Virus record (IMG/VR): IMGVR_UViG_3300022555_003222 | Span: 66,809-130,808 of that record | From: a virus | Strand: one strand, 5' to 3' | DNA length: 64,000 bases | Part shown: positions 20,006-54,104 of the stretch, piece by piece | Layout: each line of letters opens with the position of its first letter | Numbering within the stretch: the stretch's first letter is position 1 | The notes under the pieces: model-generated | What the model saw: only the letters and a program-made list of their open reading frames with translations | Told to the model about the DNA's origin: nothing | Database searches by the model: none | Translations under genes and position numbers: made by a program

Positions 20006-20088
20006 TGAGTGCAGATGTATAGGGGGCCAGAAGGCCGACAGGCACAGCCCACGGCTACGCCGTGGGCTGTGCTATACATCTGCACTCA
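20006..20088. repeat. 17-bp perfect inverted repeat of the array motif flanking a 14-bp hairpin
   Basis: tgagtgcagatgtatag (20006-22) / ctatacatctgcactca (20072-88); hairpin 20042-20072. Confidence 0.92.
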
Positions 20089-20197
20089 GTATGCTAGCGT
20101 GTGGTGTACTCCTGTACTGCACAGTGTACTAGCGTATGGTGTACGCCTACACAGTATAGCATACATGGTGTATGCTATACTGTAGTGTACGCATGGG

Positions 20198-20461
20198 CTA
20201 CATGCAGTCGTAGCCATAGTCGTGCCCGAACGATGGGCAGGCCACTGGTGGCCGTGGCCGCTCGGCCTCGGGCCGCACACACTTCATCAGTGTGTGGGTC
20301 GAACAGCCAGTAGCAAGCCGTGTCGCATGGTCGGCCTCGACCTCGACGAACAGATACCGATAGCCCTCGTCTATCAGGCCCATCAGTACGTCCATCCAGT
20401 TGGCCGGGGTGCAGGGGTAGGCCATGTCGTCGCCGCAACGGGAAGCAGATCGGATGTGCAT
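20198..20461 (-). CDS. Cassette hypothetical protein
   Basis: Motif 20505 and AAGGA RBS upstream. Confidence 0.6.
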   Translation of the reverse strand: MHIRSASRCGDDMAYPCTPANWMDVLMGLIDEGYRYLFVEVEADHATRLATGCSTHTLMKCVRPEAERPRPPVACPSFGHDYGYDCM

Positions 20462-20583
20462 TGTCGTGTCCTTGTGTTGGTTGTGTTGTCTCGTTACACC
20501 ACCAGTTATACATCTGCACTAAGCAGGTGTTTCTCGTCGGGGCAAGAGCCACCGGCCAGAGGCCGGTGGCTCATTCGTTAGCC

Positions 20584-20838
20584 CTATCGCTTGGGCATCC
20601 GTACACCATTCATGGCTCTGGTCAGCATGGACTGGATACGCTCCAGACTCCAGCCCGTGTGCCGTAGGCTGTCGGTGTATCGGTTCAGTTCAGGCCAATG
20701 GCCGGTGCTGAACATCTGCCGCATCGTCGCCACTTCCTCGCCCTCGACGATCTCGTTATCCATCAGTCGCTCGTCCATGCTGGCCGTGGCCGTTCGGCTC
20801 TCGTCACCCGCTTGCTGTCCTTGGTATCTTGCTCGCAT
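20584..20838 (-). CDS. Cassette hypothetical protein
   Basis: Motif 20879 and RBS upstream. Confidence 0.75.
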   Translation of the reverse strand: MRARYQGQQAGDESRTATASMDERLMDNEIVEGEEVATMRQMFSTGHWPELNRYTDSLRHTGWSLERIQSMLTRAMNGVRMPKR

Positions 20839-20931
20839 GATCGTGTCCCTTGTGGTGGTTGTTCTCGTTACACCGGCAGTTATACACCTGCACTAAGCAG
20901 GTGTTTCTCGTCGTAGTCCGGGCTGCATAAC

Positions 20932-21204
20932 CTACTCGTTCCAGCCGTTATAGTCCTCGTCCATGCCATGACCGGCAGACGACATGCCGCTGTCGAAGTC
21001 GCCGTCCATGCTCTCGTCGCAGTCGTCGAAGTCCTCGTCGTCGTCGTCCTCGTCATAGTCGTCGAAGTCGTCCATGTCCTCGTTGTCCTCCGGGCCGTAC
21101 ATCTGCTCGTACCGCTGGCTGGCCTGCTCCTCAAGCCAGACTTCGCAGCAGCAGCAGTCCTCGCCGCCGCAACCGTTGCAACGTGGTGAACCGTGGTAAG
21201 GCAT
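20932..21204 (-). CDS. Cys-rich, highly acidic small protein
   Basis: GGAG RBS; CNGCGGEDCCCC followed by D/E tract. Confidence 0.75.
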   Translation of the reverse strand: MPYHGSPRCNGCGGEDCCCCEVWLEEQASQRYEQMYGPEDNEDMDDFDDYDEDDDDEDFDDCDESMDGDFDSGMSSAGHGMDEDYNGWNE

Positions 21205-21496
21205 GATAGTCTCCGTTAGTGGTTGTGATTGGTGGTCGTGCCAACAGTTATACAACTGCACTTGCTGCAATAAAAAGACAGCACCGGCCTGGGCCGGTGC
21301 ATAGGTTTCTTAACCTAACAGACGACGACTGAACCGAACCGCCCTCGAATGTGCATAGTAGGCACGTTTCGCAGGGTCAGAACTGAAACGACGCTTCCTC
21401 GTTCCATCCGGCATGGTCATTCCTCCTTGGACAAACTAAGGGGCAGTCGGCGGAAGTCGCTGACTGCCCCCTCAGTTATACAACTGCACTCGACAC

Positions 21497-21508
21497 TTAA
21501 AACTTCAT
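21497..21508 (-). other. Minigene ATG AAG TTT TAA (MKF)
   Basis: GGAGG 5 nt upstream; own motif copy at 21550. Confidence 0.55.
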
Positions 21509-21570
21509 GTTAGCCTCCATAGGTATAGACCCTCAGCCTTGCACCCTCAGTTATACATCTGCACTCACAT

Positions 21571-21582
21571 TCAAACCTTCAT
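21571..21582 (-). other. Minigene ATG AAG GTT TGA (MKV)
   Basis: GGAGG 5 nt upstream; own motif copy at 21624. Confidence 0.55.
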
Positions 21583-21751
21583 AGTTGCCTCCATCGGTGT
21601 AGAGTGTTAGCCTTGTGCCCTCAGTTATACAACTGCACTCTCCCTTAGTGCGATCATAGTTGCTAGTGCATAGACTGATAGCTAGATCACCTAGACTACT
21701 AGACTGCGTAAAGCCCTACCCTGCTTCGCAGGGTAGGGCCGACCGGCCTAA

Positions 21752-23809: not shown

Positions 23810-25464
23810 GATTGGTTCTCCTATGCCACTACTTATACACCTGCACTTGCCGTCTTTTTCCCAAGTCGTCGTGTGCTTTTGTTGGCAACACGCTTGCCAT
23901 AGGGCTTCAAGTGCTTGGCATAGCTTCGTGCCTTCGTGCTGGTTTCGGGGTGCTTACGCATTGGTTTACTCGCTCTAGTGCTGGTCGTATTGGGACACAC
24001 AAGCAGGACAATGGTAATAAGTGCCATATCCTGCCCACCCAACGGGGAAATGGGTGCCGATAGGAATGTTCATGGCATCAGGTAAGTCGTCAACTTGCAG
24101 ATGCTCGACTTCGATCTTGATGTTCTCAGTTCGTCCTCGGCATTTACACTTCGCACAAACGATGGGCAAGTTGACGATCATCGTTGCTTTCCGAATCATA
24201 ATGTCTTTCATCGTGGTTCTCCTGTGCCATTACCTATACATCGGGACCAAGCACATTAGCCCTGAATACGCTTTGTATAGTTCTTGATCGGTTCGGCCAA
24301 GGCATCGGCAAGGTCGCTGACATGAATCAACACTTCCTCATATCCCGCACTATGCCCATGCTCCCAAGCATTGTAAGCTATGGCCGAATGAAACTCTTTA
24401 GGAAGATCGGCCAGCAGTTCAGTCTGCTTGGCCTCGAACTGCTCTTGGGTTAGTCGGGCCGGTGGTGTTGGTGTTGGCCGATCACTAAAAGGATAAATTT
24501 TATTCATCTTATACAACTGGACTTGAGAGAATAAGCGTCAGGCCGGTTCCCGGCCTGACGCAATAATTATTTGTTCACCTTGCATAAGCAAGGCGGGCCT
24601 TTGTTCTTTATTTCAATAGGGCCGTTTACTTCGTTAGTGCTAGATGGGCAGTCGTCGCTGCCCTCGTTGCTGGTCTGTTGACTTGGCTCGGCCACCGTCA
24701 ACATCACCAGTATCATGCCTAGTAGTCCGATCATAGTTCCTCGGGGGCCTTGGCCAGCCGCTCCTCGTATTGGTCTAGGTCGAAGGGTTGCATAATCAGG
24801 GCAATCGCACCGCCATCACTACGTTCCAATTTGATTGCGCTGACTGTTTGATACTCGATGCCGGGGATGCACACGCACAGGACCGTTTCATCACCCAAAG
24901 AACTGGTTGCTGCAATCTCTCGCAGTTGCTTCATGGCCTCGCTGACCGTAAGTTCGTTGCTCATTTCGTGGTTGCCTTTCGTTTGATTTTACGGCTGAAC
25001 TGCATACCACAGTGACGACATCTTAGCCACTTTAACAGGCCAAGAACGCCAAGTAACATTAGTTCGCCACCGCATAGTTTACATTGCATGGTTGGTTTCC
25101 TTCTGCTGTTGGTTATACAACTGGACTCACTAGCCATTCCAGGCCGCAGTCTCATTCAGCACGACTGACTTGCTGTAGGGCTTGTGCCCTATCATTCGCA
25201 AGTCGCTGCCTACGTTGCAGCCATAGTCGTATAACAGACGTTTAGCCACTTCCAAACCGCCACGGTGGGCTACACACGCACCGTTGACATAGATAATCCA
25301 GGGCAAGACCGAATCCCAATCAGGTTGATAGGTTGCTCGACCGTTGCCACACTTGGTTCGATAGGTTTCACCGATCTGGGGCATTGTGGTTTCCTTCTGC
25401 CATTGGTTATACAACCGGACTGCTGCGAATTAGCCCCACCCTGCTTCGCAGGGTGGGGCATGTA

Positions 25465-25965
25465 TCACCTTAGCCAAAGGTCGTCGGCCCAGGCATATTC
25501 TTCTGCTTCGTCGCCATCGACCACAAATGCCTTCTTCGGGGCATCGTGCCAAATGGGGTCAAACCCTTCCGGCAAGGCCGCAGCACCAACATAAAGCATT
25601 TTCGGTGGCTCCACAAAATACTTCAACAGGGCAGGGCATAGCCAGCCAGCCATTGGCTTGTCGGCAACCATGCCGCCGTACCAGTTGCCGATCAGCACAC
25701 TATGCTCTTTGCCATCCTTGGACTTGAAGGACAGATTGCCCTCTTGTAGCCAATGCAAAGTAACATCAGCACCATCGAATGGCTCGGCCCCGAACGTCAT
25801 GGTGAAGCCCTTGTCGGTATCCGGCAAGGCTTTCGTTTCGATGATCTTGTCGATCATTTCACTCATGCCACAGACGAACGCTTCGGCCTTCAACTCGGTT
25901 GTCGGGTCGTCAAACACCCAACACTTGCTATTGGGTTCCTTGTAAGGAAATAGTTTCATATTCAT
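25465..25965 (-). CDS. DUF6717-like protein
   Basis: WVFDD...EAFVCG...GNWY...WLCPALLKYF pattern (recalled family). Confidence 0.7.
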   Translation of the reverse strand: MNMKLFPYKEPNSKCWVFDDPTTELKAEAFVCGMSEMIDKIIETKALPDTDKGFTMTFGAEPFDGADVTLHWLQEGNLSFKSKDGKEHSVLIGNWYGGMVADKPMAGWLCPALLKYFVEPPKMLYVGAAALPEGFDPIWHDAPKKAFVVDGDEAEEYAWADDLWLR

Positions 25966-26033
25966 GTTTGGTTATCCTCATGTTGATTGTCCTTTGTTGG
26001 ACGTTGTTGGTTATACAACTGCACCAGATTGCT

Positions 26034-26381
26034 TTAGGTCACAATCTCATGCACCAGTACGTTGGGCATATCAAAGGTCGTCCAGCCCTTTTCTTCGACC
26101 AGCCAATCAAGAAACTGGCTGTCGCTGTCTGGATGCTCGACCGCTTCCTGCCACTCGGCCCACAATTCATCAAGGGCATCAGCAACGTGCATCGGCTCGT
26201 TGCTGCCCTTCGTTCTCACCCCTCGGTAGGTGTCATCAGCCTGATAAACAGGGATGCCATTGACCTTCGGTGGTTCGACTGTACCAAGGGTATAAGTCTC
26301 TTGGTCGCTGCCACTGTCTTGTCGGACATTGATCGTGACAGGACGTTGAATGTTTCGCTTACTCATTTTGTGGTTCTCCAT
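26034..26381 (-). CDS. Cassette hypothetical protein
   Basis: Lies between motifs 26010 and 26389. Confidence 0.75.
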   Translation of the reverse strand: MENHKMSKRNIQRPVTINVRQDSGSDQETYTLGTVEPPKVNGIPVYQADDTYRGVRTKGSNEPMHVADALDELWAEWQEAVEHPDSDSQFLDWLVEEKGWTTFDMPNVLVHEIVT

Positions 26382-26464
26382 GCTTGCAGTTATACAACTG
26401 CACTTAAAACATTTAGCGAAAAGACTGCCACGGCGAAGCCGTGGCAGTCCACCCTTCCCACAAC

Positions 26465-27121
26465 TTAGGCCGCAATCGCTTCGGCCTTTGTTTCCGCATA
26501 GGGGGCCAACTCGTTGACGATGTAGACCTCGCCACCGGCTCGGACTTCGACAACGTGATCCGTTCGGTACTCCTTGTAAAAGAAGTCCACCGGGTCGCTA
26601 TCGCTAACCCGCTTCGGCTTGACCCACGGGGCAAGGTCAGTCTTGCTGACTTCGTTGCCCTGCTCGTCGAAGTAGGACGTTTCGACGATGGTTTTCGCTG
26701 GCCCTTCCTTCTGCATACGCATTTCCAGATACAGTTGCCCCTTGTGTCGGATGAGGGGGGTGTTCTGGATACGCTCGCCCCACTTACGGGGTTGCAGATC
26801 GTGCTTGATCGGCCCAGCCGTTTCCAAGGCCAGGGCAGCCGCTTCATCACCAGTGGCACGGGCCGCTTCGATGGCCGCACCCCAATGACGGGCATTTTCG
26901 TTGTCTCGGCTCCGAACGTAGCTGAAACAGGTCATGGCCCGCTTGACCAAGGCCCGCTTCTGAATGTTCTGGAACGGGCACTTGACACCGGCCTTCCGGT
27001 CGCCACCTGCATTAACGTACAGGTCGGCATCGGTCAGGGCAACGATGCCCAGGGTTTCGACCGTGGCAACCCGCAACAGGATGCCTTCAAGTTCGTTCTG
27101 GCTGACATAGTGGATGGTCAT
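26465..27121 (-). CDS. Cassette hypothetical protein
   Basis: 218 aa; motif 27164 and AAGGA RBS; ends IAA. Confidence 0.85.
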   Translation of the reverse strand: MTIHYVSQNELEGILLRVATVETLGIVALTDADLYVNAGGDRKAGVKCPFQNIQKRALVKRAMTCFSYVRSRDNENARHWGAAIEAARATGDEAAALALETAGPIKHDLQPRKWGERIQNTPLIRHKGQLYLEMRMQKEGPAKTIVETSYFDEQGNEVSKTDLAPWVKPKRVSDSDPVDFFYKEYRTDHVVEVRAGGEVYIVNELAPYAETKAEAIAA

Positions 27122-27277
27122 GGTTTCGTTCCTTGTGGTTGGGTTGTTTCGTTGACGCTGCTAGTTATACACCTGGACTCGACTGCTTACTCGGTTGCCA
27201 ACACTAGCAGACCTAACATGGTTACAATTACGGTATACAATTCGATAATGTTGACCGCTTCCACTGATACACCCCTT

Positions 27278-27580
27278 CTAGGCCACGAATACGTGGCCTC
27301 CAATATGGTCCCCCGAATGGGGTTGTGCTGCCTTGGCCGCTTCGATGACTTCGGTGGGTACAACTATCTCAGTTGCCCCCAGCATCGGCATCAGGTCGAT
27401 GTTGCAAGCATAATTAGCTTTGTGCTTGCTAATCATGCCCTTGCCGGTCACCTTGTCGAACCGACAAATCCGATGGTCAGATTGAATCTGGAAGAATGAA
27501 CCGTCGCCCATATCAGGGTATACGGTCCACTCGACCGCTGAACGCATATTGCCTAGACGAGCTACAATTGAAAATCTCAT
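27278..27580 (-). CDS. Cassette hypothetical protein
   Basis: Motif 27619 and RBS. Confidence 0.8.
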   Translation of the reverse strand: MRFSIVARLGNMRSAVEWTVYPDMGDGSFFQIQSDHRICRFDKVTGKGMISKHKANYACNIDLMPMLGATEIVVPTEVIEAAKAAQPHSGDHIGGHVFVA

Positions 27581-27681
27581 GGTTTCATTCCTTGTGATTG
27601 GTTATCGTTACGCTCCTTGTTATACATCTGGACTAGAGAAGATAGCCCCACCCTGCTTCGCAGGGTGGGGCTTGTATAGAA

Positions 27682-28050
27682 CTAGGCCGGGTGTCTCCGG
27701 GCCTTGTAGTTGGCCGGTGGCTTGTACGCTTGGACGTAGACCTGGAACTGACCGGATTCGACGATGGCATAGCCATAGCCCTTGTCCAAGTCATGGGTCA
27801 ACTTCATCTTGAACCGCTGCACACTCAGGGCCGGTTCATCATCGGCTCCGAAACCGCTGGAATCGACCATGAAGGCATCGCCCACCGCCGTCCACCCTTG
27901 GGGTGCATAGTCACCCATAAAAGGCATCGGGAATGGGGGCATACGATCAATCTCGGCTTGATCGTATGGGACATAAGGGACACGCCGCTGACCAGCAGCA
28001 CGACGGGTGGCACGATCACTGGCAGACCGGATAGCTTCCAAAGACATCAT
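27682..28050 (-). CDS. Cassette hypothetical protein
   Basis: Motif 28096; start at MMSLEA. Confidence 0.8.
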   Translation of the reverse strand: MMSLEAIRSASDRATRRAAGQRRVPYVPYDQAEIDRMPPFPMPFMGDYAPQGWTAVGDAFMVDSSGFGADDEPALSVQRFKMKLTHDLDKGYGYAIVESGQFQVYVQAYKPPANYKARRHPA

Positions 28051-28123
28051 AACTAGGGTTCCTTGTGGTTGGGATAGTAACTGCGAACGGAGCCAGTTAT
28101 ACAACTGGACTTACCCGATATAT

Positions 28124-28408
28124 TTAGGCCGCACGGGCAAGGGTAGCCACTGATCGACTAGCCTCGAACGAAATGCCGCCCATACGCCGCTGGTAAGTAG
28201 GGATATATCCCTTGACTTCCAGTTCGACCAGCATAGGTGTCAAACGATACAGATAGTCGTCGGCCTTGTCGTCGTGTTCCTTGGGCCATTCCACTTCGGC
28301 AAGGTAACAATCGACTTTGCCATTCAGGGTAATCGTGGACGTTGCCACAACGACCGGCACACCCTGAACATCCATCACTTGCACACGCTCGGCAACATTG
28401 ACTTGCAT
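28124..28408 (-). CDS. Cassette hypothetical protein
   Basis: GAGG RBS; ends LARAA. Confidence 0.7.
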   Translation of the reverse strand: MQVNVAERVQVMDVQGVPVVVATSTITLNGKVDCYLAEVEWPKEHDDKADDYLYRLTPMLVELEVKGYIPTYQRRMGGISFEASRSVATLARAA

Positions 28409-28494
28409 ATAGACCTCGTTGGTTGGAAAGTAAAAGCGTTGGCTCGCCCCGGCAGGGGTGAGCATTACACCCACCCCTGCCGGTTTGATTCGTA

Positions 28495-28854
28495 TTAGGC
28501 CGCTTTCGCAGCCTTGTATTGGGCCAGAACTTCGGCCTTACGGCTGGCCTTGTTCTTGACAGCCTCAACCGCTGCCCCATATTGGGCCAGCACTTCCAGG
28601 TCTGTGCCCTGGTAGCCGTAGCACGACCGGCTGTTCTTCACGAACCGATTCGCTTGCACCAAAATGGTGGCATCGGCTCCTACGACGTTGAACAAGGCAC
28701 GATATGCCTTCGCCAGTTCCCGCTGGGCAACCAAGGCCGCACAACGTCGCTGATACGCTTCGACGTTGGCCTGGGCCTTGGCAATCTGTGCCGGGGTCTT
28801 GGCCTTCTTCGCCTTCTCCGACACAACCTTCACTCCACCCTTCGCCATGTTCAT
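28495..28854 (-). CDS. Lys/Ala-rich basic protein
   Basis: AAGGAG RBS; motif 28888; ends KAAKAA. Confidence 0.8.
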   Translation of the reverse strand: MNMAKGGVKVVSEKAKKAKTPAQIAKAQANVEAYQRRCAALVAQRELAKAYRALFNVVGADATILVQANRFVKNSRSCYGYQGTDLEVLAQYGAAVEAVKNKASRKAEVLAQYKAAKAA

Positions 28855-29517
28855 TCTCCTTGATGATGTTGACTGTTGTTGATTGAAGTTATACACCTGG
28901 ACTAAGCTGCTTTTGCAAGGGCCAAAGCAACTTTATTGTCGAACCCGCAGGCCGTATAAAATCGGCTTCGGTCGAATCGGGGGTTGTCATAGCAAGCCAC
29001 GATCATGTCGTAGCAAGCCTGGGCTTGAACACGCTGGCCGCAGTTGACCAACTCACGGATATGCCGTGCAAACTCGACAAAGTATTTCTTACTCATGGTT
29101 GATTTCCTTTCACTTGCAGTTATACACCGGCACTATGCCGCTTTAACTGCCGATGGTTGCCCGTATCGCAGCCAGTTGGCCGCTTCGTCACGGGGAATGT
29201 CATACCAAATGTCGCCGCTGGTGATCTGGCACTTACGGGTGACTACATTCACCAGCACATACCAAGGGCCAACCGAATAAATATGGTTGTGGGGTTGGTA
29301 GGTATGAAACAACTTAGTTGCTTTCTTGCCAGTCATCGTTCGGTTCCTTGTGGTTGATTGTTGAACACCGGCAGTTATACACCTGCACTCAACAGGATAA
29401 AATCAGATACACGACGTACAGAACGCTTGCCATGAACACACAGTCCACGACGTATCGGTGTGGATAGGTTAGCCACTTACGCATGATTGCTCCAAAAAAG
29501 TGATGTTAGTTCCACAG

Positions 29518-29588
29518 TATCCCATGCGGGAATCGAACCCGCAGTTCCAGATTGAAGGTCTGGCGTCATTCCGTTAGACCAATGAGAC
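29518..29588 (-). tRNA. tRNA-Glu (UUC), atypical C33, no encoded CCA
   Basis: Acceptor GTCTCAT/ATGGGAT, D arm GTC..GAC, anticodon stem CCAGA/TCTGG with loop CCTTCAA, T arm GCGGG-TTCGATT-CCCGC. Confidence 0.85.
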
Positions 29589-29860
29589 ATAAACAGGCAT
29601 CCGGCCAAAGCCCACATTTTCAACCGCCCCTATTTTAGAACCCATTCAAGGGTGACAAGGTTAGTGGGGTGTCATCCACTGGCGGCACTTGTTTCGTGCC
29701 TCATGTTATACATCTGAACTCACTAGCATTAACAAAATAAACAAGAAGTTCCGCCGTTAATTATACATCTGAACTCTGATGCTTACCTAAACTACCCGTC
29801 CACCGTGTATTACTTAGTTCCTAGTTCTTAGATCGTAGTTCTTAGTCCCTAGTCTATAAA

Positions 29861-30112
29861 GAAAAAGCCCACCCCGGCAACGCCGGGGTGGGCAACAACA
29901 CAACCAACCACGATTGTAAGAAATTATTTCAAAGAGAAGGAGACCCTCCCTCCTGCACCGCAGGAGGGAGGGCAGACAACGCAACCAACGCAACCAACCG
30001 TCTCATTGTAAGAGTGCCCGGCAGTGAGAACCACCAACACTGCCGGGCTAGCAGCAACCAACCATCACACACTGTAAGAAACCCAGCACTGCTGGGTAGC
30101 TACCAACCACCG
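29861..30112 (-). ncRNA. Candidate structured RNA: four hairpins alternating with GGUUGGU elements, ending in a terminator
   Basis: Hairpins at 29867, 29944, 30016 and 30081; caaccaacc at 29901, 29991, 30055; tgtaaga three times. Confidence 0.4.
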
Positions 30113-30115
30113 TTT

Positions 30116-30550: not shown

Positions 30551-30588
30551 TGCCTTCCCCTGCGAAGCAGGGGAAGGCTTGTTCCACA

Positions 30589-31460: not shown

Positions 31461-31682
31461 TTATACACCTGGACTGGATACAAGTTCCCACTGGCAACCG
31501 TATATGTTGAAACCATATTCTTCGGCCAGGGTCATCAAAACTTTTTCATCGTTGATAATGCCGGGAATAAACCATTGTGGGTCACGGGGAGCAACGTCAA
31601 TAGTACATTCGGTAGGCAGACCACAGGCATCCAAGGTTTCGCCTTCGGTATCCCATTCAATGTTAGTACAACGTACCTGCAT
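31461..31682 (-). CDS. Small protein, paralog of adjacent gene
   Basis: IEWDTEGETLDACGLP shared with 31682-31864; ends SPGV inside the motif. Confidence 0.75.
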   Translation of the reverse strand: MQVRCTNIEWDTEGETLDACGLPTECTIDVAPRDPQWFIPGIINDEKVLMTLAEEYGFNIYGCQWELVSSPGV

Positions 31683-43548: not shown

Positions 43549-44013
43549 TCAATAGACTTCGGCTAATGGCTTATCGCCAGTGAAGTCTACTTTGAATCGG
43601 AAACGGGTTGTCGCTTCTGCCGTACCATTTTCACGCAGATAGATAACGCAACTGGTGATATTTGGTTCTTGACTATCCCATTCCCAACCATCACCATCTT
43701 CAAACGTATCGGAGCCGAAGTCGTATTCGCAAAGCAACTGCTCGGCAGTCTGTCGTATGTAATCCCGCCGATCTTCCATCAGCTTAACACTGGCAGATAC
43801 AGGGTTTGGATCAGGCTTATAGCCTTCGCCGTAGGACTCCACAGGAAACCGCTTTGCCCTGCTGTTAGGCCGGGTTAGCTTCGCCGTCATGGTGAAAATG
43901 CCAAAACGATCACCACTAAGATGGTGAATAATCTTACCCTCCTCAAACAACTTCTTTTCCAAAGGGGTCAAGGTCAAAATGCCCTCGCCTTGTTCGTTGC
44001 TGCTGTAATTCAT
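43549..44013 (-). CDS. Cassette hypothetical protein
   Basis: TGA overlaps motif 43534; ATGA overlap upstream. Confidence 0.75.
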   Translation of the reverse strand: MNYSSNEQGEGILTLTPLEKKLFEEGKIIHHLSGDRFGIFTMTAKLTRPNSRAKRFPVESYGEGYKPDPNPVSASVKLMEDRRDYIRQTAEQLLCEYDFGSDTFEDGDGWEWDSQEPNITSCVIYLRENGTAEATTRFRFKVDFTGDKPLAEVY

Positions 44014-44191
44014 TTGTCATCTTTCCAATCAGGGGGCAGGGTGACTCGATCATTAGCCATCCTGACGTTATCGGTGATGTATGTCTGACCCTCGGCTTTC
44101 AGACACTCGTACAGAATGTCAAACGCTTCCAGGGGCAGACCGTGTTCGTCCTGTAATGCCAGGACCGCAAAATCGTGTAGTTCTTGGCCGC

Positions 44192-44680
44192 TCATTCGTC
44201 ATCTTCCTCCGTAGTGATGTTATACACCTGAACTAACCCGTTCAACTCCTCGGTATAGCCAGTTAGTTCAAGGGTTTCTGACTGCAATTGTTCTTTCAAC
44301 TTAGTCAACTCTTGTTCCTTGGTAAGAATCCTGCTTCGCAAGTGCTTGACTTGCGCCTTTATCAGCAATTCAGGATGCAAGGCCGCATATTCAGTCCACG
44401 CCGTAGTAACCGCTTCCTTCATGGCACGAATTGCCACTGGGGTAGGTTCGGGGGTACGCTGCATTTGATTTCGACTGACATAGCAATCATAGGATTGCTT
44501 CGTTTGCCACACTCCATCTACCAAATACAGATGAAGATGGACATAGTAAAAGTTGCCACGATAGACCAACTGCTGTTCGGGCTTGCCGTGATCGCCAGTT
44601 GACAGGGAAACATGGTCGCCCTGGGTAATCGCATACCCGATATTGCCAAGTCTGGTTGTGATGTTGCCTTCGATAAACAT
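44192..44680 (-). CDS. Cassette hypothetical protein with coiled-coil C-terminus
   Basis: Start MFIEG; reads through an internal motif copy at 44219. Confidence 0.75.
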   Translation of the reverse strand: MFIEGNITTRLGNIGYAITQGDHVSLSTGDHGKPEQQLVYRGNFYYVHLHLYLVDGVWQTKQSYDCYVSRNQMQRTPEPTPVAIRAMKEAVTTAWTEYAALHPELLIKAQVKHLRSRILTKEQELTKLKEQLQSETLELTGYTEELNGLVQVYNITTEEDDE

Positions 44681-44955
44681 GATAGTTCCTTGGGGTTGGA
44701 TCGTTCCGCCTTCGGCGGAACGATCCTTGTTATACACCGGGACTTAGGTTGATTCCCAGGTGGATTCAACGCACTCGTCACCTTCGTATTCGGTCAGATT
44801 ATCTTCGCTGCCGTCAACGTCAAAGTCACGCACAACGATCTGTATATCTTCGGGAATATCGCAGATGTTTTGAATGACACCACCTTCGACAACAACTGTA
44901 ATGACTCGCTTTTCCATGATTGGTTTCCTTTCTGTTCCTTGTTATACACCTGGAC

Positions 44956-45504
44956 TCACTTGGCATCCCAGCATTGTTGATCTAAGATGCCATTGTGAAT
45001 GTCGGGCCGATATTCTTTCAGCCACGCCATCGCTGAATCTTTGTCTACATGGCACTCAAATCCTATGCCTTCTTTTGCTTCAACATAGTTGAACAACTGG
45101 GAAACTTTTTCGTCACTGTCGGCAACATATTCGGCCACAACATCGGCCTCATAATCGCCGCCCCAATCGTAGTTTGCCAGGGCCATGATTTCGTCATAGT
45201 TTGCCTGTTGGAACCAGGGCAAGGCATCAAAATCGACTTCATAAACACAATCGTCACTATGAACTTCTGCCTTAATGACAACTGTTTTCTCTCCTGGATT
45301 GAAATGATTGACGTATGCCTGGGCCATTTCTTGGCTAGGCAAATCAATATCTACCTGATCGAACTTAACGCCTTGGTCAGTCAATTCCTTCCAACCGTGT
45401 GGGTAGGGATGTTCTGCACCACGATAGTCTTTGGCATCAACGCAACCCACGATCTTGAAGTTGCTAAGGGCAACGATGATACTGCTGGATACTTGTTTAC
45501 TCAT
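44956..45504 (-). CDS. Cassette hypothetical protein
   Basis: Start MSKQV; DWGGDYEAD..GFECHVD; TGA overlaps motif 44941. Confidence 0.75.
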   Translation of the reverse strand: MSKQVSSSIIVALSNFKIVGCVDAKDYRGAEHPYPHGWKELTDQGVKFDQVDIDLPSQEMAQAYVNHFNPGEKTVVIKAEVHSDDCVYEVDFDALPWFQQANYDEIMALANYDWGGDYEADVVAEYVADSDEKVSQLFNYVEAKEGIGFECHVDKDSAMAWLKEYRPDIHNGILDQQCWDAK

Positions 45505-46454
45505 GGCCTTACCACTTCCCTTGTTTGATAAATGGTTGTAAATTAACCAACTGGTCAACGTGATCGTCTAGTTGACGACAATAATACGAATCGGATATAA
45601 TCCCTTCCGTATGATTGCATTTATGCCCTTCCATTGATCCAGTTAAAGCAATCAACTGCATCAGAGGAGTGGGTTGTCGCCAACGTGAGTCTTTGTTGTT
45701 CATGGTTATACACCGGGACTAACAGAAAAAGTAATGTATATCTTCGTCTTGATCGTACATCCAGCAAACACCGTAGTTTTCCCCAAAGGATATATCCTGT
45801 TTATCCAGTAGGTGCTGTAACGATTCGGGAACCACGCACTTCTCGCAAAACTCTTGTCGGGTAATTTCGGTGGCTTCGCCGTTTTCTTCGTCCACCATTT
45901 GTTCTAGCATGGTTGCATCGGACGCAACTCTGTCTAGGAAATCTTCGTTATCCAGACAATCAATGCAATTACAAATATAGTAGTACATGGTTTTAATTGG
46001 GGGTTAGGTGGACGGTTCAAAGTCAAAGATTTCGATGTTATCATCATCGCAATCTACGTTAGCAAGCAGATCGGCAAGGCTGACGAACAGATTGCCTTCC
46101 TGCAAGTCTTTGGTCAATTGCTTGGCATCCATTTGGCTAACGTCGATGATCTTGCCGTCATTATCAGTGGCCTTGGTCAATTCGACTCCACGCATCCAAC
46201 CAGAAAAACACAGATCAATCTTGGGCATTTTAGTTTCCTTTGTCAACAGTGGTAATTTCTTCCAACAGATCGGCCACGGGTTCTTTCAGTAGGACTGCCA
46301 GAAACTCGGCCACACCTTCGCTGAATCCTTCCAAGAAGTCGCTGGACAATTCCCAGGCATCTTCATCCCGGTCAATAATGACTTGCTTGGCTTGTTCGAT
46401 CAACTGGATACGTTTCATTGTGATTCCCTTTCGATCCTTGTTATACACCCGGAC

Positions 46455-46931
46455 TCACTTACGCAGGCCCAGGCCAATGCTGGTGAACTCGGTCAATACG
46501 TCCTGCTTGTCCAAGGTTTTGTCGGCAAGCAACTTGTCCAACTTAGCCAAAGTTGCATTTTTGTTGCCGTAGACCTTCAACAGTTCTTCTCGGAACAGAT
46601 TGTCGCCGCCTTTGAACTCATACCGACCACGCTCAATTGCTTCACCGAAACTCTCAAAATCGACGGGTTTCGGCAGAGGCAACTCCATTACAAGTTGCTT
46701 GGCAAAACGGGTTTCGGATTGCAGTTTTTGACCCTTGGAAGGTTGCATATCGTCGCCCTCCCAACAGGTGACCCACTGATCTTCGGGCAGAATAATATCC
46801 AGACTGCCCTCGTACATTACATCAGCATTGGACGGACGACACTGGATGGTCAACCGCTTCCCGCCATCAAATTCAAGTACAACATCGCAATCGTGCTTGG
46901 GCACTTTGATTACTTTTTCAGTGAACTTCAT
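46455..46931 (-). CDS. Cassette hypothetical protein
   Basis: Motif 46956, AAGGA RBS; stop in motif 46440. Confidence 0.78.
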   Translation of the reverse strand: MKFTEKVIKVPKHDCDVVLEFDGGKRLTIQCRPSNADVMYEGSLDIILPEDQWVTCWEGDDMQPSKGQKLQSETRFAKQLVMELPLPKPVDFESFGEAIERGRYEFKGGDNLFREELLKVYGNKNATLAKLDKLLADKTLDKQDVLTEFTSIGLGLRK

Positions 46932-47962
46932 AGTTCTTTCCTTCGGTTGGTTATGATTATACACCTGAACTTACAGGTGATCTTCGTCATCTGGAATATC
47001 CAGCTTGATACCCTTATCGTAGGGACTGTAAACGGCTCCTACATCTTGTTCAAGATATGAACCGTCGATGCCGACCATTGCGCCGGTATCCAGCTTACGA
47101 ATTTCGATTTCCACTTCGCCGCCCGTATCGGGATCGGTGACAGTGATGCACTTGACAAACTTCGTATTGATCTTTGACATGGTTTCTTTCCTTTCAATGA
47201 CCACACTTGGGGCAATAGCCCGGCCATTCCTCTTGGGATGTTTCCTCGCCGCATTTTGGACAACCCATTACGTTCTCGATTTCAACGGGATCGCAGATGG
47301 TATCAATAGTTTCCCATTCGTTGCCCATTTCGCTAACACCATCGCCGTTCTTGAATTTGAACTCGGCCTTGGCTTTAGCTTCATCAGGGGTATCGGCATC
47401 CACGATAAACGTGCATTGGCCTTTGTAAATGACTGGTACTTCGTATTGCATGATTTCTGTTATACACCGGGACTCGGCGCACATTCCTTGCAGTAGGGTG
47501 ATTCGTCTACGATTACAGAACAATCAGGACAAACATGCTTGCCACATCCGGTACAAACATCATATTCCCTTACGTCGGGAAGGTCTGATGTTGACTCAAA
47601 AATTACGGTTACTCCGCAATCTGCACAGTGTTCTAGGTCCATTATGACACACCTTCCATCTTGCACAGTTCATCAGCACGTTCATCGGCAACAGTATAAC
47701 ACCATTCCCATGAATCGGACTGTTCGACCTTGCCATCAAAAGATGCCAGCAAACCCTTTGCCAATAATTTCTTGGCAAAAGGGACGGTGCAAATACCGTT
47801 AAAGTCGCCATCTTCGGTTGTCAATCGAGCAAATGAATACTTACGCATGATTTTCCTTTTTGTTTCCAACATCACCCCCGCTACGAGCGGGGGTGATGTT
47901 TATTCCTGTTGGGCAACAGGCTAATGATTCATGTCTCTGGTTATACACCTGGACTCACTTGC

Positions 47963-48352
47963 TTAGTATTGCAAGTAGTCATCTTTATTTTCGACATACT
48001 TGCCTTTCTTGGCCTTGATCCACACGACAATCTTACTGGTCAATTTTTCCAAGTGACGTTCGTACTCTTGTCTGTTATGGGCCACACGAAGTTCCTCAAT
48101 AGTACGACTGATGCCAACGGGCAGATCAGACCTTTGCAAGAAGGTGCAAGCACTTTGGACAGCACCACCTTTCATTCGCACACTATCGCCGTCATTGTAA
48201 TAACGGTAATAAATCTTGCTCACAGCCCGAAGAATCTCACCTTCGTGAGTATCGGCAGGACCGCTATCGGGCACAAGGTTTTTCAGCTTATCGTAGGCAG
48301 TCTGATGTTTGCCCTGACTGTTCCAATAAGTCTTTTGAACTTTTGTTTTCAT
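47963..48352 (-). CDS. Cassette hypothetical protein
   Basis: AGGAG RBS; GEILRAVSKIYYRYYNDGD. Confidence 0.8.
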   Translation of the reverse strand: MKTKVQKTYWNSQGKHQTAYDKLKNLVPDSGPADTHEGEILRAVSKIYYRYYNDGDSVRMKGGAVQSACTFLQRSDLPVGISRTIEELRVAHNRQEYERHLEKLTSKIVVWIKAKKGKYVENKDDYLQY

Positions 48353-48763
48353 TATTGAATCTCCTGTTGCCTCTTGTTATACACCGGGACTCACTTACTT
48401 GTGAATCAAGTAAATGGTGGGTTGTGGTTCCGGTGGTTTGGTGTAATACTTGGCAGTTACCAATTCTTCGTTATCCGTTCCCACTTCCAAAACCACTCGG
48501 CATACTGCCAAGGACTCTTTGGGAATCTCTTGCAACCACTCCAATAGTTGTAGACCGTTCATGTTATGCCGCCTCCATTTCAACGTGACTTGCACCATTT
48601 TGGACAATTTCAATATGGCCCAAAATCTGCAATCGGGCCAAAGCACGATCATAGGTCGTTTTGTTTTCACACACCCACACAGTTGGGGTGGGATTTTCAA
48701 AAGACCTATTCAAAAAAGTAATTGTAAGACAGGCATTAAACGGATGGACTTCAATTACTCGGT

Positions 48764-49195
48764 TCATGTTGACACCTTTTCCAACTCGGCACAATGCTTG
48801 TACCATGCTTGGGTTTCCAACGCATCTTGGGTTCCCACCGCAAGACCGACCTGGGAAATCCAGGCTTTTGGAGCATGAAGGTACGCCACTTCAACGTGGC
48901 TGGGAAAGTCGTAATGATCTTCGGCATCGGCCTGGGTACAACCCATAATGCCACGATAGCCACAGACATACGCCGAACGGTATTCATCTTCAATTTCGCT
49001 ACCGCTGATAATGGGCAGCTTTGTGCCGGATGCTCGGACCAAAGCATTAAGACGATCTTCGACGTATTCGCACTCAAGATCAAAACTCTCAACCGCAACC
49101 GCCAATTCAACGAACTGGGATCGCATAGTATCTCGCAACTCCTTCAAACTAAAATTTGAAGCTGAACGCAAATTCAAAACTGCTGCAAGGGACAT
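48764..49195 (-). CDS. Cassette hypothetical protein
   Basis: Motif 49222 and AAGGA RBS. Confidence 0.75.
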   Translation of the reverse strand: MSLAAVLNLRSASNFSLKELRDTMRSQFVELAVAVESFDLECEYVEDRLNALVRASGTKLPIISGSEIEDEYRSAYVCGYRGIMGCTQADAEDHYDFPSHVEVAYLHAPKAWISQVGLAVGTQDALETQAWYKHCAELEKVST

Positions 49196-49222
49196 AATTG
49201 GTTTCCTTTCTGATGCCGATTG

Positions 49223-49702
49223 TTATACAACCGGACTCGGCTTAATTCGTCTGCCCAATGGGACTGAATAGGCCCAATGATATTTTGTATTGTCGTCACA
49301 ATCGCCCAGATACTCGGCCACAACGTCAATGATGTTGTCGCTTTTCTTAGTGGGACCGGCATAAATCTTTGCCAGGATTTTTCTTTCTTTGACAATCACA
49401 CAACCATGTTCGATCTTGCCGTGTTCACCATGATGATGAAAAGTATGAAGCATGATACCATTGTTGGCATCGGCATACTTTTTGGCAATCTGCCGAATGT
49501 AATCGGGAATGTCACTAAACCAACTGTAAAGATCGTAATGCTGGCCGGATTCGCTTTCACTGATCGACCTTACCACGCCGCTGAATTGCGCTGCGCCCAT
49601 CGCAGCACAGGATGAAACGTCTACACAGTGTCTATCAAATTCACGATGTCCGGTATGAATATCCAATTTCATACCCTTCTTAACATATACTTTTTGTCGC
49701 AT
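49223..49702 (-). CDS. Cassette hypothetical protein
   Basis: Start MRQKV; ends SPVV in motif 49222. Confidence 0.7.
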   Translation of the reverse strand: MRQKVYVKKGMKLDIHTGHREFDRHCVDVSSCAAMGAAQFSGVVRSISESESGQHYDLYSWFSDIPDYIRQIAKKYADANNGIMLHTFHHHGEHGKIEHGCVIVKERKILAKIYAGPTKKSDNIIDVVAEYLGDCDDNTKYHWAYSVPLGRRIKPSPVV

Positions 49703-49703
49703 G

Positions 49704-50003
49704 TTAGTATCCCATTGTATCGTTGTATGCCTCAACACCACCCATCATGCCAGCCTGCATGGCAATTTCCCGCTTCCAATCGTCGTCGGATGTATCCTGG
49801 TCAGGCACAAAGTCGGGATTCTTCCGGTATTCTTCGTGATCGGGACCGACCAGGGAAACATACATGGTGCTAGTGTGGTAATACTCGTCCACAGGTGCAT
49901 TGAAGGCAACTAATGCCTCCTCCAAGGTTTCATAGTCCGATCCAGTCCAACAATCGTCGTTTCCTTCGTTGGGATGACTGCCCCAATAGTTGACTTCAAA
50001 CAT
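49704..50003 (-). CDS. Cassette hypothetical protein
   Basis: WGSHPNEGNDDCWTG; motif 50027 and RBS. Confidence 0.8.
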   Translation of the reverse strand: MFEVNYWGSHPNEGNDDCWTGSDYETLEEALVAFNAPVDEYYHTSTMYVSLVGPDHEEYRKNPDFVPDQDTSDDDWKREIAMQAGMMGGVEAYNDTMGY

Positions 50004-50733: not shown

Positions 50734-51860
50734 GGTTCATTTCCTCCGCTGATGGTTATACACCGGGACTAACCGAATATAATCTTTTCAGCTTTCTTGA
50801 TTTCCCGTTGATTGCCCTCGACCTCTACGCCAGTATGTCCGACATAGATGGAAGTGCAAGGCTTGGCTTTAATCCCTGCTGATCGCAATTGAATCAGGGC
50901 CATTTTCTGACCCTTGCCACCCTCGGTCGCTTTCAAAATAGAAAAGACTTGAAGCACAGTAATTCCTTTCGCATGGTTATACATCGGGACTAGATACGAT
51001 TAGTTCTTGGGGTCAAGTCTAATGGTTTCAAGCCTGGGTTACATAGGGACAAGATTTCAACGTCCAAAGCATCGTACTCGTCCAACAGTTCTCTTTGTCG
51101 CTTCGCAATTTCCGCTATGCGAGGCGATTCGTATTCCCTATCAGTTGGCAGACTCAAGCCACGTTCAGACCTTAGCCGCCACGCCATTTCGTTAGAAATT
51201 GCCATTGACGTACTCCAATAATTGTTCGTATGGTTTGCCATCCTTAATCATCTTCACAAGAATGGCATCTTCAATCAACAATGCTGGCATAACGCTGGTT
51301 TCCCCGGCAAGTTGATTGATTGTAATTTCCCAAGATTTCATGGTATTGCCTTTCGCTTAGTCGTCGCCGTAGGTGGTTTTGATTTCGGCAGGGGTCAATT
51401 CGGTTAGCCCTTCGATATTCACTTCAACGCTTTGGATACCGCAGGGATCGCCTTCGGATTCATTATCCCAATCGACCTGTAGTGCTTCGTTCAGGTACTC
51501 TTTCAGTTCCTCAACGGTGACTTGTCCTGCAAGTTCGCCACGTTGTTCATTGGCAACCGCTTCATCTTCGTCTATTGCTACCAAAAAAGTAGCTTTGAAC
51601 GCTCGTAACGCCATGATAGTTTCCTTTCAATACAAATCGGCTCGAAGGTTTTCGGCAACAGTACGCAGATCATTAGGATCAATCTGTTCGTCTGAAACCT
51701 CTGTGTCGTAAGGTAGATTTTCGCCTGCTTCTGCCGCTTCGTCAATGACAACGGCCAGTGAATTAACTACGGCACGAACACCGTGCTTTTTCACCAAATC
51801 AATCAAAATTTCAAAATTCATCATTTCCTCTGCTGGTTGTTATACACCGGGACTAAAGAT

Positions 51861-52256
51861 TCATTCAAAATCTTCCGGTCTGGATTCATCTGCACAGCTA
51901 TTCAGCTTGCCGGATGTATCCCGAAAGTAAATGTCAAAATCTTCACCACACTCACGACTGAATTGCCGGTAGGCATCGTCGGCATTACGACAATCTTCTG
52001 CCGGGGCATAGCCGATTTCCTTGTTGGTTCCAGCCTTGGTAAACACCCAACCCCTCGGCTTCCGCCTCTTAGTCTTGGCATCACACCGACACTTGTTAGC
52101 AAATAGACCAACACTGGTTTCACCATGCTGGTCAGCAAATGCCAAAGCCGCTTCTTGACTAACACAACTTCGGGCCTTGCTCCACTCTACCCAAGTTCCA
52201 TTAGAACTAAGGTAAAGACCCTCTAGGCCACACTTACGGATTCTATATCGCACCAT
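51861..52256 (-). CDS. Cassette hypothetical protein
   Basis: Motif 52280 and AAGGA RBS. Confidence 0.72.
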   Translation of the reverse strand: MVRYRIRKCGLEGLYLSSNGTWVEWSKARSCVSQEAALAFADQHGETSVGLFANKCRCDAKTKRRKPRGWVFTKAGTNKEIGYAPAEDCRNADDAYRQFSRECGEDFDIYFRDTSGKLNSCADESRPEDFE

Positions 52257-52294
52257 GATTGTTCCTTTCAATGTTCCTTGTTATACGCCGGAAC

Positions 52295-52615
52295 TCAAGT
52301 GTATTTCAGCAACTCAGTTTCCATCTTTGCCAATTCAGTTTTGGCACGTTCGATCTTGCCTTGCAATTCCTTGGCAATCACTTCGGGAGCAATCGCTTTG
52401 AACCTGAATGTATTGCCCATGCCGGTAGTGATCGTGATAACACCATCTTTCTTGGTGATCCGCTTTTTGATGAAGGTCACCGATTGGCCGCACTCTGGAC
52501 TAAACCAGTTGTCGCCGTCAGTCAAATGGATTTCTCCACGTTCGCCAATAATATCGGCAAATTCCTCTTGATCGCCCTGGACTTCAAACAGTCTGGCCTT
52601 GATTACTCGGTGCAT
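52295..52615 (-). CDS. Cassette hypothetical protein
   Basis: GAGGAGG RBS; TGA overlaps motif 52280. Confidence 0.78.
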   Translation of the reverse strand: MHRVIKARLFEVQGDQEEFADIIGERGEIHLTDGDNWFSPECGQSVTFIKKRITKKDGVITITTGMGNTFRFKAIAPEVIAKELQGKIERAKTELAKMETELLKYT

Positions 52616-52806
52616 GGTTCCTCCTCGTCAAGCAAAGATTGAAGATACATCTTAGATGCTTCGATTTCGTCCAGTTCTTTCTTCAATCCCTCAACAGAAT
52701 AATGTTCGTACAAAATGTTGTCCACCGTCGAATAATAAGACGACAAATGGACAATCGCCGTTTCGATTTTATCCCTGTCCAATTGCATTGGGTCAGTTCC
52801 TCCCGT

Positions 52807-52996
52807 GTTATACACCCATACTAAGGGTTGTTTGGTAAGATAGACAAGCCCCACCCGGCACGCCGGGTGGGGCTTCTAAAAAATTGGCGCAGCATCGCCA
52901 TAGCGGCCCATGCTATACATCCGTACTAAGGGTTCTTTGGTAAGATGGGTAAGATAGGTCGATGCTATACAACTGCACTTGGGGTTCTTTGGTAAG
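52807..52996 (-). repeat. Three 33-bp extended motif copies at the upstream end of the array
   Basis: Motif plus (t/g)(a/g)(a/g)gggtt(g/c)tttggtaag at 52807, 52912 and 52964. Confidence 0.9.
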
Positions 52997-54104
52997 CTGG
53001 GCAATCATGCCAAATTTGTATCCATTGGATAGATTTGTAGTCCTTAGATTTCATTTCTTAGATGTTTGTACTTACAAAGACGTTAGTTTCTTAGATGGTT
53101 ATAACTTACAAAACTGCTAGTTTCCTAGTTAGGTGATTCTTCTATTCCCCTGCCCGCCTAGAACATTAACATTATTTGCCCATCTTGCGTAGGCTGCTGT
53201 CGATCTTGCACGTTGACCAGGGTTTTTCTTTGCCCATTTTGCTGCACAAGAATGTTCTACATTTTCATGGCCGCAACATTCTAGGCATCGCTTGCATCGG
53301 GAGCATTGGCCCTCGCCTTCACCCCACTTACGACCGCAACCTGGGCATCCTTCTTTTAAGGTCATCTTAGCCATCAAATTTCTCCTTCTGGGAGAACTTA
53401 TACACACCGAACTTACATTAGTTTGGTGGAGCAGGTAGTTCTAGTGGTAAAACTGCGAGACTTTTGCATGGCAAACTCTATCCAAGATATGTTGACCATT
53501 TCCCATGTAGATCGGTCGCTATGAAAGTTTTGTACTGGCTCCAATATGCCGTCCATCTGAATGACATCGAAGTTTCGTTCAGACTCCTTGCGATTTAGAT
53601 TGTTATTGGGACTACGACCGTACTGAGTGGTGAAGAAAAGGATATTCATTTTCCTGTTATGCTTTGTGCGTAGCACAAAAGTTTGTGCATGATACCCGAA
53701 CGATAGCGTGAAGAAGAAAAGGATCGACTGGTTTTATTCAACCATGTCCGTCTTGCAAAAAACATGAATTTCATTTGTTTATTACACTTCAAAATGAGTG
53801 CGATCAGGGATTGCTTTACGTGGGAATATGCTAGATTCCTCCTTTATTATACGCCAGTTTTGACCATTTGTGAAAGGAATCATGGATTAAGTGTCAGTTT
53901 TGACACCTTATTGTTTACTAATTTGATAATGGATCTTATCATGTCGAATATAATGCGATACAATACATTGAATTAAATGATATAAATTTAGATCAAATCG
54001 GTCCAGAACGAAGTTCTGGACCGATTGTTAATTCAGACCTATTAGAATTGATTTATGGAGGTCTGGGAAGGTATTTGAAGGTCTGAACGGGTGTTTGAAA
54101 GGTG

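Follow-up and report, generated by a model that had tools for sequence, protein, structure and literature searches.

Why does a single 16-nt sequence recur about 70 times, usually ahead of small genes and in one orientation, within 33 kb of a phage genome? The question is raised by a stretch of 64,000 nt (hereafter the window) that represents the final 64 kb, positions 66,809 to 130,808, of the 130,808-bp IMG/VR virus record IMGVR_UViG_3300022555_003222. An array on the minus strand of the window, at 20071-52979, comprises 69 copies of the motif, about 93 small open reading frames (ORFs), 27 perfect hairpins and one tRNA gene. The explanation that we favour, and regard as probable, is that this is an array of lineage-specific promoters, not of the sigma70 type, in which gene cassettes are shuffled through short-homology recombination in the manner of promoter-early stem-loops (PeSLs) of T4-type phages.

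The record is a fragment, with a completeness of 26% as estimated by CheckV, and its genes are of the T4 type (Gp23 capsid, Portal_T4, prohead protease, gp25 baseplate, and terminase). The source is a huge T4-related uncultured freshwater/lake phage. Its closest relative among GenBank phages is LR756511.1, also uncultured, a complete genome of 595,163 bp, with which it shares 70% amino acid identity in the capsid protein (MCP). The first 71.6 kb of the record are collinear with 523.5-585.2 kb of LR756511.1, and a megablast search of window positions 8000-20000 and 30000-50000 against GenBank phages gave no match.

The exact motif, AGTNCNGNTGTATAAC, has 54 matches in the window, 54/54 on the minus strand, while 0.00 are expected from shuffled sequences. 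Allowing up to two mismatches gives 70 matches against 1.15 expected, 69 of them on the minus strand at 20071-52979 and one inverted, on the plus strand, at 20008-20023. In the whole 130,808-bp record, the exact motif occurs 0 times in the forward and 54 times in the reverse direction, all within the array, and its core TGTATAAC has 59 reverse-strand matches, 58 of them inside the array. The initial annotation, made from the sequence of the window, had described about 70 copies on one strand and found none elsewhere in the window; both points are borne out, the second by a motif search extended to the full record, in which there is no further copy. It had placed the end of the array at 53413, which takes in one more ORF upstream of the last motif at 52979, and had given a spacing of 0.05-1.2 kb, correct at its lower end and too short at its upper end: measured distances between motifs are 52-1434 nt, with a median of 458 nt and six gaps below 100 nt.

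Named by their minus-strand 5′ ends, each copy being 16 nt long, the motifs lie at 52979, 52927, 52822, 52295, 51854, 50991, 50770, 50042, 49237, 48391, 47955, 47474, 46971, 46455, 45720, 44956, 44744, 44234, 43549, 43097, 42868, 42344, 41855, 41311, 39877, 39817, 39289, 39234, 38559, 37623, 36952, 36248, 35589, 34564, 34337, 34033, 33393, 32922, 32366, 31929, 31475, 31147, 30956, 29775, 29720, 29389, 29134, 28903, 28111, 27634, 27179, 26404, 26025, 25421, 25127, 24523, 23847, 23565, 23113, 22750, 22319, 22100, 21639, 21565, 21490, 21262, 20894, 20520, and 20086. Variants are distributed along the array in a regular way, with AGTGCAG near 20-24 kb, AGTCCAG in the middle, and AGTCCCG at 41-52 kb. 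Neighbouring motif variants and their leaders are more similar to each other than distant copies are, to a degree reached in 0/1000 permutations. The array ends at 20008-20086, on both strands, with two degenerate motifs (TATAGG and TATAGC variants) facing each other across a 14-bp perfect hairpin. This palindrome-like end could be a bidirectional stop or an inversion scar.

Sequence information in the aligned copies is confined to positions 0-15 of the block and is near zero from -30 to -3, leaving no -35 element, as the initial annotation had also noted. A consensus scan of 25001-45000 disclosed 26 sigma70-type sites, against 24.2 ± 5.8 expected, none of them at a motif. Since such sites are not enriched, the block is the only candidate promoter. 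In 56 of 69 copies, an ORF of at least 30 aa begins within 110 nt after the block, separated from it by a leader with a median length of 22.5 nt (10th-90th percentile 7-45 nt) that continues into a strong ribosome site and ATG. The leader had been described as 15-45 nt long and rich in A and C; it is indeed short, while its composition (A 40%, C 24%, G 23%, T 13%) is A-rich and T-poor instead. The block is also tightly joined to the preceding gene. The stop codon of the upstream ORF overlaps it in 41/69 copies, as TAA or TAG inside the block (15), as TAG across its first base (12), or as TGA or TAA ending on the first base (14). The copy at 36937-36952 (minus strand) illustrates this arrangement, in which the upstream gene stops on a TAA inside the block and is followed by leader, ribosome site, and ATG.

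In three units (24523, 45720, and 47474) the ORF starts 0-7 nt past the block without a ribosome site, and in unit 52822 the ribosome site starts 2-3 nt past the block. If the block is a promoter, these near-zero leaders and the close ribosome site would place the transcription start at, or just after, its 3′ end. A reading of TATAAC as a sigma70-type -10 box is disfavoured by its last base, the missing -35 element, the spacing of the ribosome site in 52822, and the ORFs whose start codons lie 0-7 nt past the block. A base-paired structure within the block, involving positions 3 and 7, was dropped, since the variants show no covariation.

Empty and duplicated units, noticed in the initial annotation, are both present. 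No ORF of at least 30 aa starts within 110 nt downstream of 13/69 copies, and there are five tandem sets of motifs (39877/39817, 21639/21565/21490, 29775/29720, 52979/52927, and 39289/39234). One of them, at 39802-39904 (minus strand), is a tandem duplication of 60 nt that includes a hairpin, the motif, and the beginning of the leader, and thereby forms an “empty” unit. Another, at 21475-21639 (minus strand), has three motifs at intervals of about 75 nt, and the DNA between them contains no ORF that reaches 30 aa.

Perfect hairpins are found throughout the record, 27 in the array and 19 elsewhere, in total 46. Their stems are 10-17 bp long (12-15 bp in the array), the loop is 3 nt in 37/46, and many are flanked on both sides by runs of A and T, as is typical of bidirectional terminators. 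They look like a general terminator-like signal of the phage. A hairpin lies within 45 nt upstream of the block in 10/69 copies, as does the perfect hairpin with a 3-nt loop at 33402-33430, just upstream of a motif, and within 45 nt downstream in 9/69. Examples outside the array are located at 2596-2628, 14799-14829, and 19426-19454 of the window. A tRNA-Glu gene (anticodon TTC; 29517-29588, minus strand; Rfam tRNA, 57.5 bits) follows the tandem motifs 29775 and 29720 at a distance of about 120 nt. The Rfam search of the window detected nothing beyond this tRNA, and the block matches no Rfam family. At 33117-33201, neither ARAGORN nor Rfam (gathering thresholds) called a tRNA. Hairpins just upstream of 10/69 blocks, together with a unit headed by a tRNA, imply a need for re-initiation of transcription and not for translation signals.

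The window motif was not found in LR756511.1, which has a motif of its own, AGCTGTAC, in the same layout. On the plus strand there are 55 copies in 0.6-19.2 kb, each leading through a leader and a ribosome site into a small gene; this stretch has 49-52% GC compared to about 41% in the genome. The core of AGCTGTAC has 77 copies on the minus strand, where about 8 per strand are expected, distributed as 31 in 19-46 kb, 19 in 46-110 kb, 23 in 110-300 kb, but no more than 2 in 300-600 kb, the part with the structural genes. No copy is located within the structural module. Copies of AGCTGTAC lead gene blocks that converge from the two strands, and stand ahead of the first genes of runs. It thus appears to mark one expression class that spans the non-structural half of LR756511.1, beyond any cassette array. 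On these grounds (position, strand, leader, ribosome site, units that follow hairpins, the tRNA, and the analogue in the relative) we infer a promoter role for the block, in accordance with the phage-specific promoter suggested initially.

The window motif and AGCTGTAC share only G-N-TGTA. Contig L097, one of the relatives described below, carries the window spelling ahead of larger genes, including the one for a primase-helicase-like protein. For two L097 genes that follow window-type motifs, a homologue exists in LR756511.1, in one case directly behind AGCTGTAC. Related genes with different spellings in different lineages point to a trans-acting factor that would co-evolve with the motif. 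Within one spelling, conservation is high. Genes of the related contigs L069 and L085 have diverged from those of the window to saturated synonymous sites, yet 3/4 motif copies keep all 13 fixed positions, and the fourth (L085:1057) differs at one of them. This comparison marks the block as evidently under strong purifying selection.

Candidates for the reader of the motif were sought by Pfam searches. The initial annotation had proposed looking for a sigma factor, an RNA polymerase or a recombinase, and the outcome is divided: sigma-like proteins and RecA are present in LR756511.1, while neither an RNA polymerase nor a tyrosine integrase was found. Multisubunit RNA polymerase domains (Rpb1_2, Rpb2_6) have no match in the record or in the complete LR756511.1, and T7-type RNA_pol (PF00940) has 0 matches in both, in a search whose control was silent everywhere. 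In LR756511.1, Sigma70_r2 gave three matches, at 299966-300178, 464536-464706, and 153144-153323, in ORFs of 165, 186, and 333 aa, respectively, and RecA was matched with an E value of 1e-116. The gene of the 333-aa sigma-like protein is itself located behind a AGCTGTAC motif. The 165-aa ORF is preceded by an apparent ordinary -35/-10 promoter. No related loci were found with the 333-aa protein as a query, nor with a helicase query. Our best guess for the reader is the core polymerase of the host combined with a specificity factor of the phage, for which the sigma-like proteins are candidates only.

A rough gene call gave 93 minus-strand ORFs in the array, about 1.35 per motif. One or two genes per unit are usual, compared to the 1-3 short genes reported before. 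Coding DNA makes up about 25.2 kb of the 33-kb array. Pfam families, all of them DUFs and zinc ribbons, were matched by 6/93 ORFs, leaving 87/93 without a family, and PHROGs by 9/93, none of them with a clear function; PADLOC and NCBIfam matched 0/93. The roles in host takeover or anti-defence that were suggested initially are conjectural, as is early expression of the genes. The ORFs of the array are real genes, as indicated by six gene pairs in common with L069 and L085 in which pN (0.16-0.33) is below pS (0.55-0.88). The only paralogous pair among the 93 ORFs is a tandem duplicate at 31461-31864 (60 and 73 aa, 40% identical), present as a single copy in L085. With just one such pair, gene duplication does not account for the repeat.

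GC content of the array falls from 57% to 43%, compared to about 41% in its flanks. Cassette genes have a GC3 of 0.64 at the 20-kb end, which declines to 0.47 towards the 53-kb end (rho -0.51, p 2e-7). The array of LR756511.1 is likewise GC-rich, and contigs that share the window spelling have 51-61% GC. The gradient might stem from the addition, at one end, of cassettes taken from GC-richer donors, from biased gene conversion, or from early genes adapting their codon usage.

If the motif is also a place where cassettes are exchanged, as the initial annotation suggested, it should be sought at the borders of differences between related arrays. A motif scan of metagenomes gave at least 115 loci, and true relatives among the matches listed are L069, L085, L097, L122, and L137, five contigs with the window spelling. 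In L069, genes flanking the motif 36952 are conserved (41-79% aa identity), but not the ORF that immediately follows it. This slot is occupied in the window by a 71-aa ORF (36699-36914, minus strand), and in L069 by a homologue, with 58% aa identity, of the 65-aa cassette gene that in the window lies behind the motif 42868 (42633-42830, minus strand). This swap involves a single ORF; its 5′ breakpoint falls within motif or leader, and its 3′ breakpoint coincides with a stop/start junction. In L085, the homologue of the 31461-31864 pair is followed by one motif and then by the homologue of the gene at 30589-30876, so that two units of the window (three genes) and one copy of the paralogous pair are missing. 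Cassette homologues in L097 and L137 are reordered, always in the orientation of the motif. A batch scan of these two contigs also revealed genes for a primase-helicase-like protein, a RuvB-like ATPase, and an ArdC-like anti-restriction protein.

Other matches were discarded. Among the listed results of the metagenome scan, L129 is a coding repeat and L087 a hairpin, and L026, L071, L075, L079, L081, L111, L115, L123, L124, and L156 are chance matches. The same holds for 22 IMG/VR loci with one exact motif each, none of which has homologues of the array. Ten distant loci obtained by alignment with one cassette protein as a query show no repeated intergenic motif, and repeated CCACCTGTA words in L189, L190, and L192 fall within a repetitive coding stretch.

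Parts of the array are contained in 15 DNA runs from freshwater, lake, and sediment metagenomes. To locate breakpoints within populations, contigs of four runs, each from a different study, were aligned to 25001-45000, and 15 of 29 joints, 10 rows of one table, and 24 of 110 loose ends were used. Breakpoints are not random with respect to the motif. Among distinct listed endpoints, 33/67 lie within 12 nt of a motif, a distance that covers 8% of positions (binomial p 6e-19), and 19/67 lie within 2 nt, compared to 4% of positions. At least one end is at a motif in 11/15 listed joints, and both ends are in 3/15. The endpoints 25127, 31475, 34033, and 38559 are exact 5′ edges of motifs. In a strain present in run X5, the joint 36598 to 42788 puts a homologue of the 42633-42830 gene into another slot, as in L069. 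Two X3 contigs, inspected by eye, are identical to the window up to the motifs 25421 and 34033 and then continue into the upstream flanks of 23113 and 23565. These jumps span 2.3 kb and 10.5 kb, and the identity shared at the joint is just 14-20 nt. The assembler word, which we take to be 31 nt, is longer than that, and the X3 joints should therefore be real recombinant molecules. They could equally well represent tandem duplications, circles, or a reordered strain. The excess of breakpoints at the block is real, and the pile-up in relatives and in co-occurring strains agrees with the proposed junction for gaining, losing, and shuffling genes. Homology at the block is the likely cause of the rearrangements.

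The most serious alternative is that the block is only a promoter. Recombination would then take place anywhere, survivors would be those that keep whole genes, and the conserved block would attract the ends of alignments. Several observations lean this way and weigh against shuffling at the block. The short side is 21-28 nt in 8/15 listed joints and may be a motif aligned to another copy; among the seven listed joints with sides of at least 30 nt, only four come to within 12 nt of a motif at an end. Certain well-supported events end away from a motif or contain filler, such as the joint 38559 to 43359, found in two runs, in which 13 filler letters intervene and the closest motif is 175 nt away from one end, and the joint 30889 to 31303, with 1021 letters between. 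The L069 swap ends at a stop/start junction on its 3′ side and is not motif-to-motif, and the loose end 27183 of run X7 resembles a sequencing adapter. The statistics themselves come from the listed joints and loose ends (15/29 and 24/110). With about 25.2 of 33 kb coding, neutral breakpoints would be confined to the intergenic DNA, about 1/4 of the array, and motifs with their 12-nt flanks account for about 1/3 of it; because this fraction is small, selection for intact genes alone would yield a part of the enrichment. Cassette turnover is high (only 2/93 cassette proteins have a homologue in LR756511.1), by whichever route. The promoter half of the explanation is likewise burdened, since no sigma gene was detected by the Pfam search in the 130.8 kb of the record, and the silent control for T7-type polymerases leaves room for divergent phage polymerases, which would escape Pfam. 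On the other side, the 19/67 listed endpoints within 2 nt exceed a uniform intergenic spread, which would give about one in six. The two X3 contigs run from identity with the window up to one motif straight into the flank of another, and neighbouring variants and leaders are more alike, as is expected from exchange between nearby copies. We therefore consider a promoter without a role in recombination somewhat doubtful, and retain promoters that double as joints as the preferred explanation.

The block could also act in RNA, as a nuclease cleavage or punctuation site that cuts long transcripts into single-gene messages. The same distribution would be expected of such a site, that is, intergenic, on one strand, and ahead of ribosome sites. 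The upstream ORF reads into the block at 41/69 copies, which would be transcribed where no terminator intervenes, and cleavage would also yield leaderless messages for the ORFs 0-7 nt after the block (24523, 45720, and 47474). However, the array contains 27 strong hairpins, 10 of which precede a block by no more than 45 nt, so that genes downstream need new starts, and sigma70-type promoters that would make a long precursor are not above chance. In addition, AGCTGTAC in LR756511.1 heads convergent blocks on both strands as well as the first genes of runs, and no Rfam family is matched. An RNA site is in our opinion improbable.

Least convincing is an integron-like system, akin to the gene library of the initial annotation, in which a dedicated site-specific recombinase from the remainder of the genome would use the block as its attachment site: although a long one-directional array of unrelated small cassettes, their gain and loss in relatives and populations, a GC3 gradient that could mean growth from one end, and a record that holds just about 1/4 of the genome all fit it, Phage_integrase (PF00589) has 0 matches both in the 130.8-kb record (about 26% complete) and in LR756511.1, which has the same architecture (the control was positive in 14/14 genomes; serine recombinases were not searched), the block is neither an imperfect palindrome nor attC-like, every unit has its own promoter-like block, with terminator-like hairpins inside the array, in place of promoterless cassettes and a common Pc promoter, and breakpoints are spread over block, leader, and gene junctions as in short-homology events instead of falling at one fixed position, which makes this very improbable.

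The closest known system is that of PeSLs. As described in two papers (PMC2839356, PMC4122927), PeSLs are repeated modules of about 100 bp, each an early promoter with a stem-loop, about 50 per genome in the T4-type phages compared there (RB49/phi1, PST/T4, and nt-1/KVP40). They are concentrated in hyperplastic regions upstream of ORFans and span the interval from the upstream stop to the downstream start codon. They bound indels and form mini-circles, and homologous exchange between copies has been proposed. Their promoters conform to the sigma70 consensus of E. coli and have an upstream part rich in AT, and conservation extends over about 100 bp (PMC2839356, PMC4122927).

The array resembles PeSLs in most respects. 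Each system is made up of composite repeats that lie in variable regions of T4-related phages, ahead of ORFans (here 87/93 without Pfam families). Both have a stop codon at the 5′ end (41/69 copies here) and a ribosome site and start codon at the 3′ end (56/69). Stem-loops lie upstream or downstream of the promoter in PeSLs and of some blocks here. In both, insertions, deletions, and replacements are bounded by the elements, here in the L069 swap, the L085 indel, and 33/67 listed endpoints. PeSL mini-circles have a possible counterpart in the X3 back-joints, which fit circles, duplications, or a reordered strain equally. The array differs in having a single conserved block of 16 nt without the sigma70 -35/-10 pair, and in a spelling that changes in LR756511.1 despite a 70% identical capsid protein. 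It is also denser, with 69 copies in one single-strand run of 33 kb compared to about 50 per genome. The stem-loop is a part of the PeSL, whereas a hairpin adjoins only 19/69 copies here. Furthermore, the block overlaps stop codons, and the GC content of the array exceeds that of the remaining genome. Overall, the array seems to work like a PeSL system in which one defining feature differs, its promoter not being of the sigma70 type.

Two other comparisons are relevant. T7-like phages have contiguous class-specific promoters, and promoters of a given class are read by phage sigma factors or RNA polymerases. The array shares with them a contiguous, conserved private block before one expression class, and a spelling that varies between relatives. 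In the record and in LR756511.1, the Pfam searches found no multisubunit polymerase gene and, with a silent control, no T7-type one, and the sigma-like genes of LR756511.1 are candidates only. The array is distinguished by its cassette shuffling and copy density, which are not known as features of those systems. Giant eukaryotic viruses have a short early-promoter motif before many genes and their own RNA polymerase, and belong to a different virus realm. The likeness, a private motif before many genes, holds by analogy only. Searches of a limited literature collection disclosed no account of the motif, nor of comparable arrays in huge phages.

Combining these data, the favoured explanation can be outlined as follows. 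The array occupies the hyperplastic part of a huge T4-related freshwater phage genome in which non-structural genes are gathered, and the 16-nt block, one contiguous element instead of a -35/-10 pair, would be a private promoter. The core RNA polymerase of the host would be directed to it by a specificity factor encoded by the phage, for which a sigma-like protein is the leading candidate, and transcription would start at or just past the 3′ end of the block. A unit would accordingly consist of the promoter, a short A-rich leader, a ribosome site, and one or two genes, with the block often supplying the stop of the previous gene, and perfect hairpins would separate some units as terminators or attenuators. 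Repeated about 70 times in one orientation, block and leader would supply short homology, about 14-40 nt, through which the recombination system of the phage may delete, duplicate, swap, and reorder whole genes while their orientation is kept. What had been proposed initially, a phage-specific promoter doubling as a shuffling joint, is thus plausible in its essentials; the likeness to integrons is the part that we abandon.

Some features of the record are outside these questions. Its T4-type portal gene includes an intein splicing domain (L031:7358-9898, corresponding to 7355-9898 of the record), and a match to LAGLIDADG endonucleases was detected among its large ORFs. The 42 large ORFs in positions 1-66808, upstream of the window, include matches to Volactin/MreB-like actin and CCA-adding enzyme families, as well as to 2′-5′ RNA ligase-like and Acb1 (anti-CBASS) families. 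In the window, a TnpB-like ORF on the plus strand at 62888-64000, open at the window end, matches OrfB_IS605 and the Cas12f1-like TNB domain. It is the sole transposon-related gene seen there, and the earlier statement that the window has no recombinase stands.

Huge phages are known almost only from metagenomes, and the timing of their gene expression is largely unknown. Here, one 16-nt signal marks about 70 putative transcription units, and another about 130 in a relative of 595 kb, with no phage RNA polymerase found. This raises the testable question of which phage protein redirects the host enzyme and how its specificity is rewritten between lineages. The array would also extend the PeSL idea from the sigma70-type promoters of cultured coliphages to private putative promoters of uncultured giants, with strain-level evidence from several lakes in support, and the motif provides a practical handle for finding the accessory-gene pool of the clade in metagenomes. 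As a tentative, more far-reaching possibility, the non-structural half of the genome in this clade of lake phages might run as a whole on a contiguous private promoter without a polymerase of its own. In this case, a phage factor, perhaps a sigma, would set the spelling, which has changed genome-wide between lineages, even on related genes, while the promoter and leader serve as a portable joint, and the GC3 gradient reflects a one-sided influx from GC-richer donors. If this is true, any gene with the right spelling could enter the array, leave it, or change its place in it, and could pass between phages with a common spelling.

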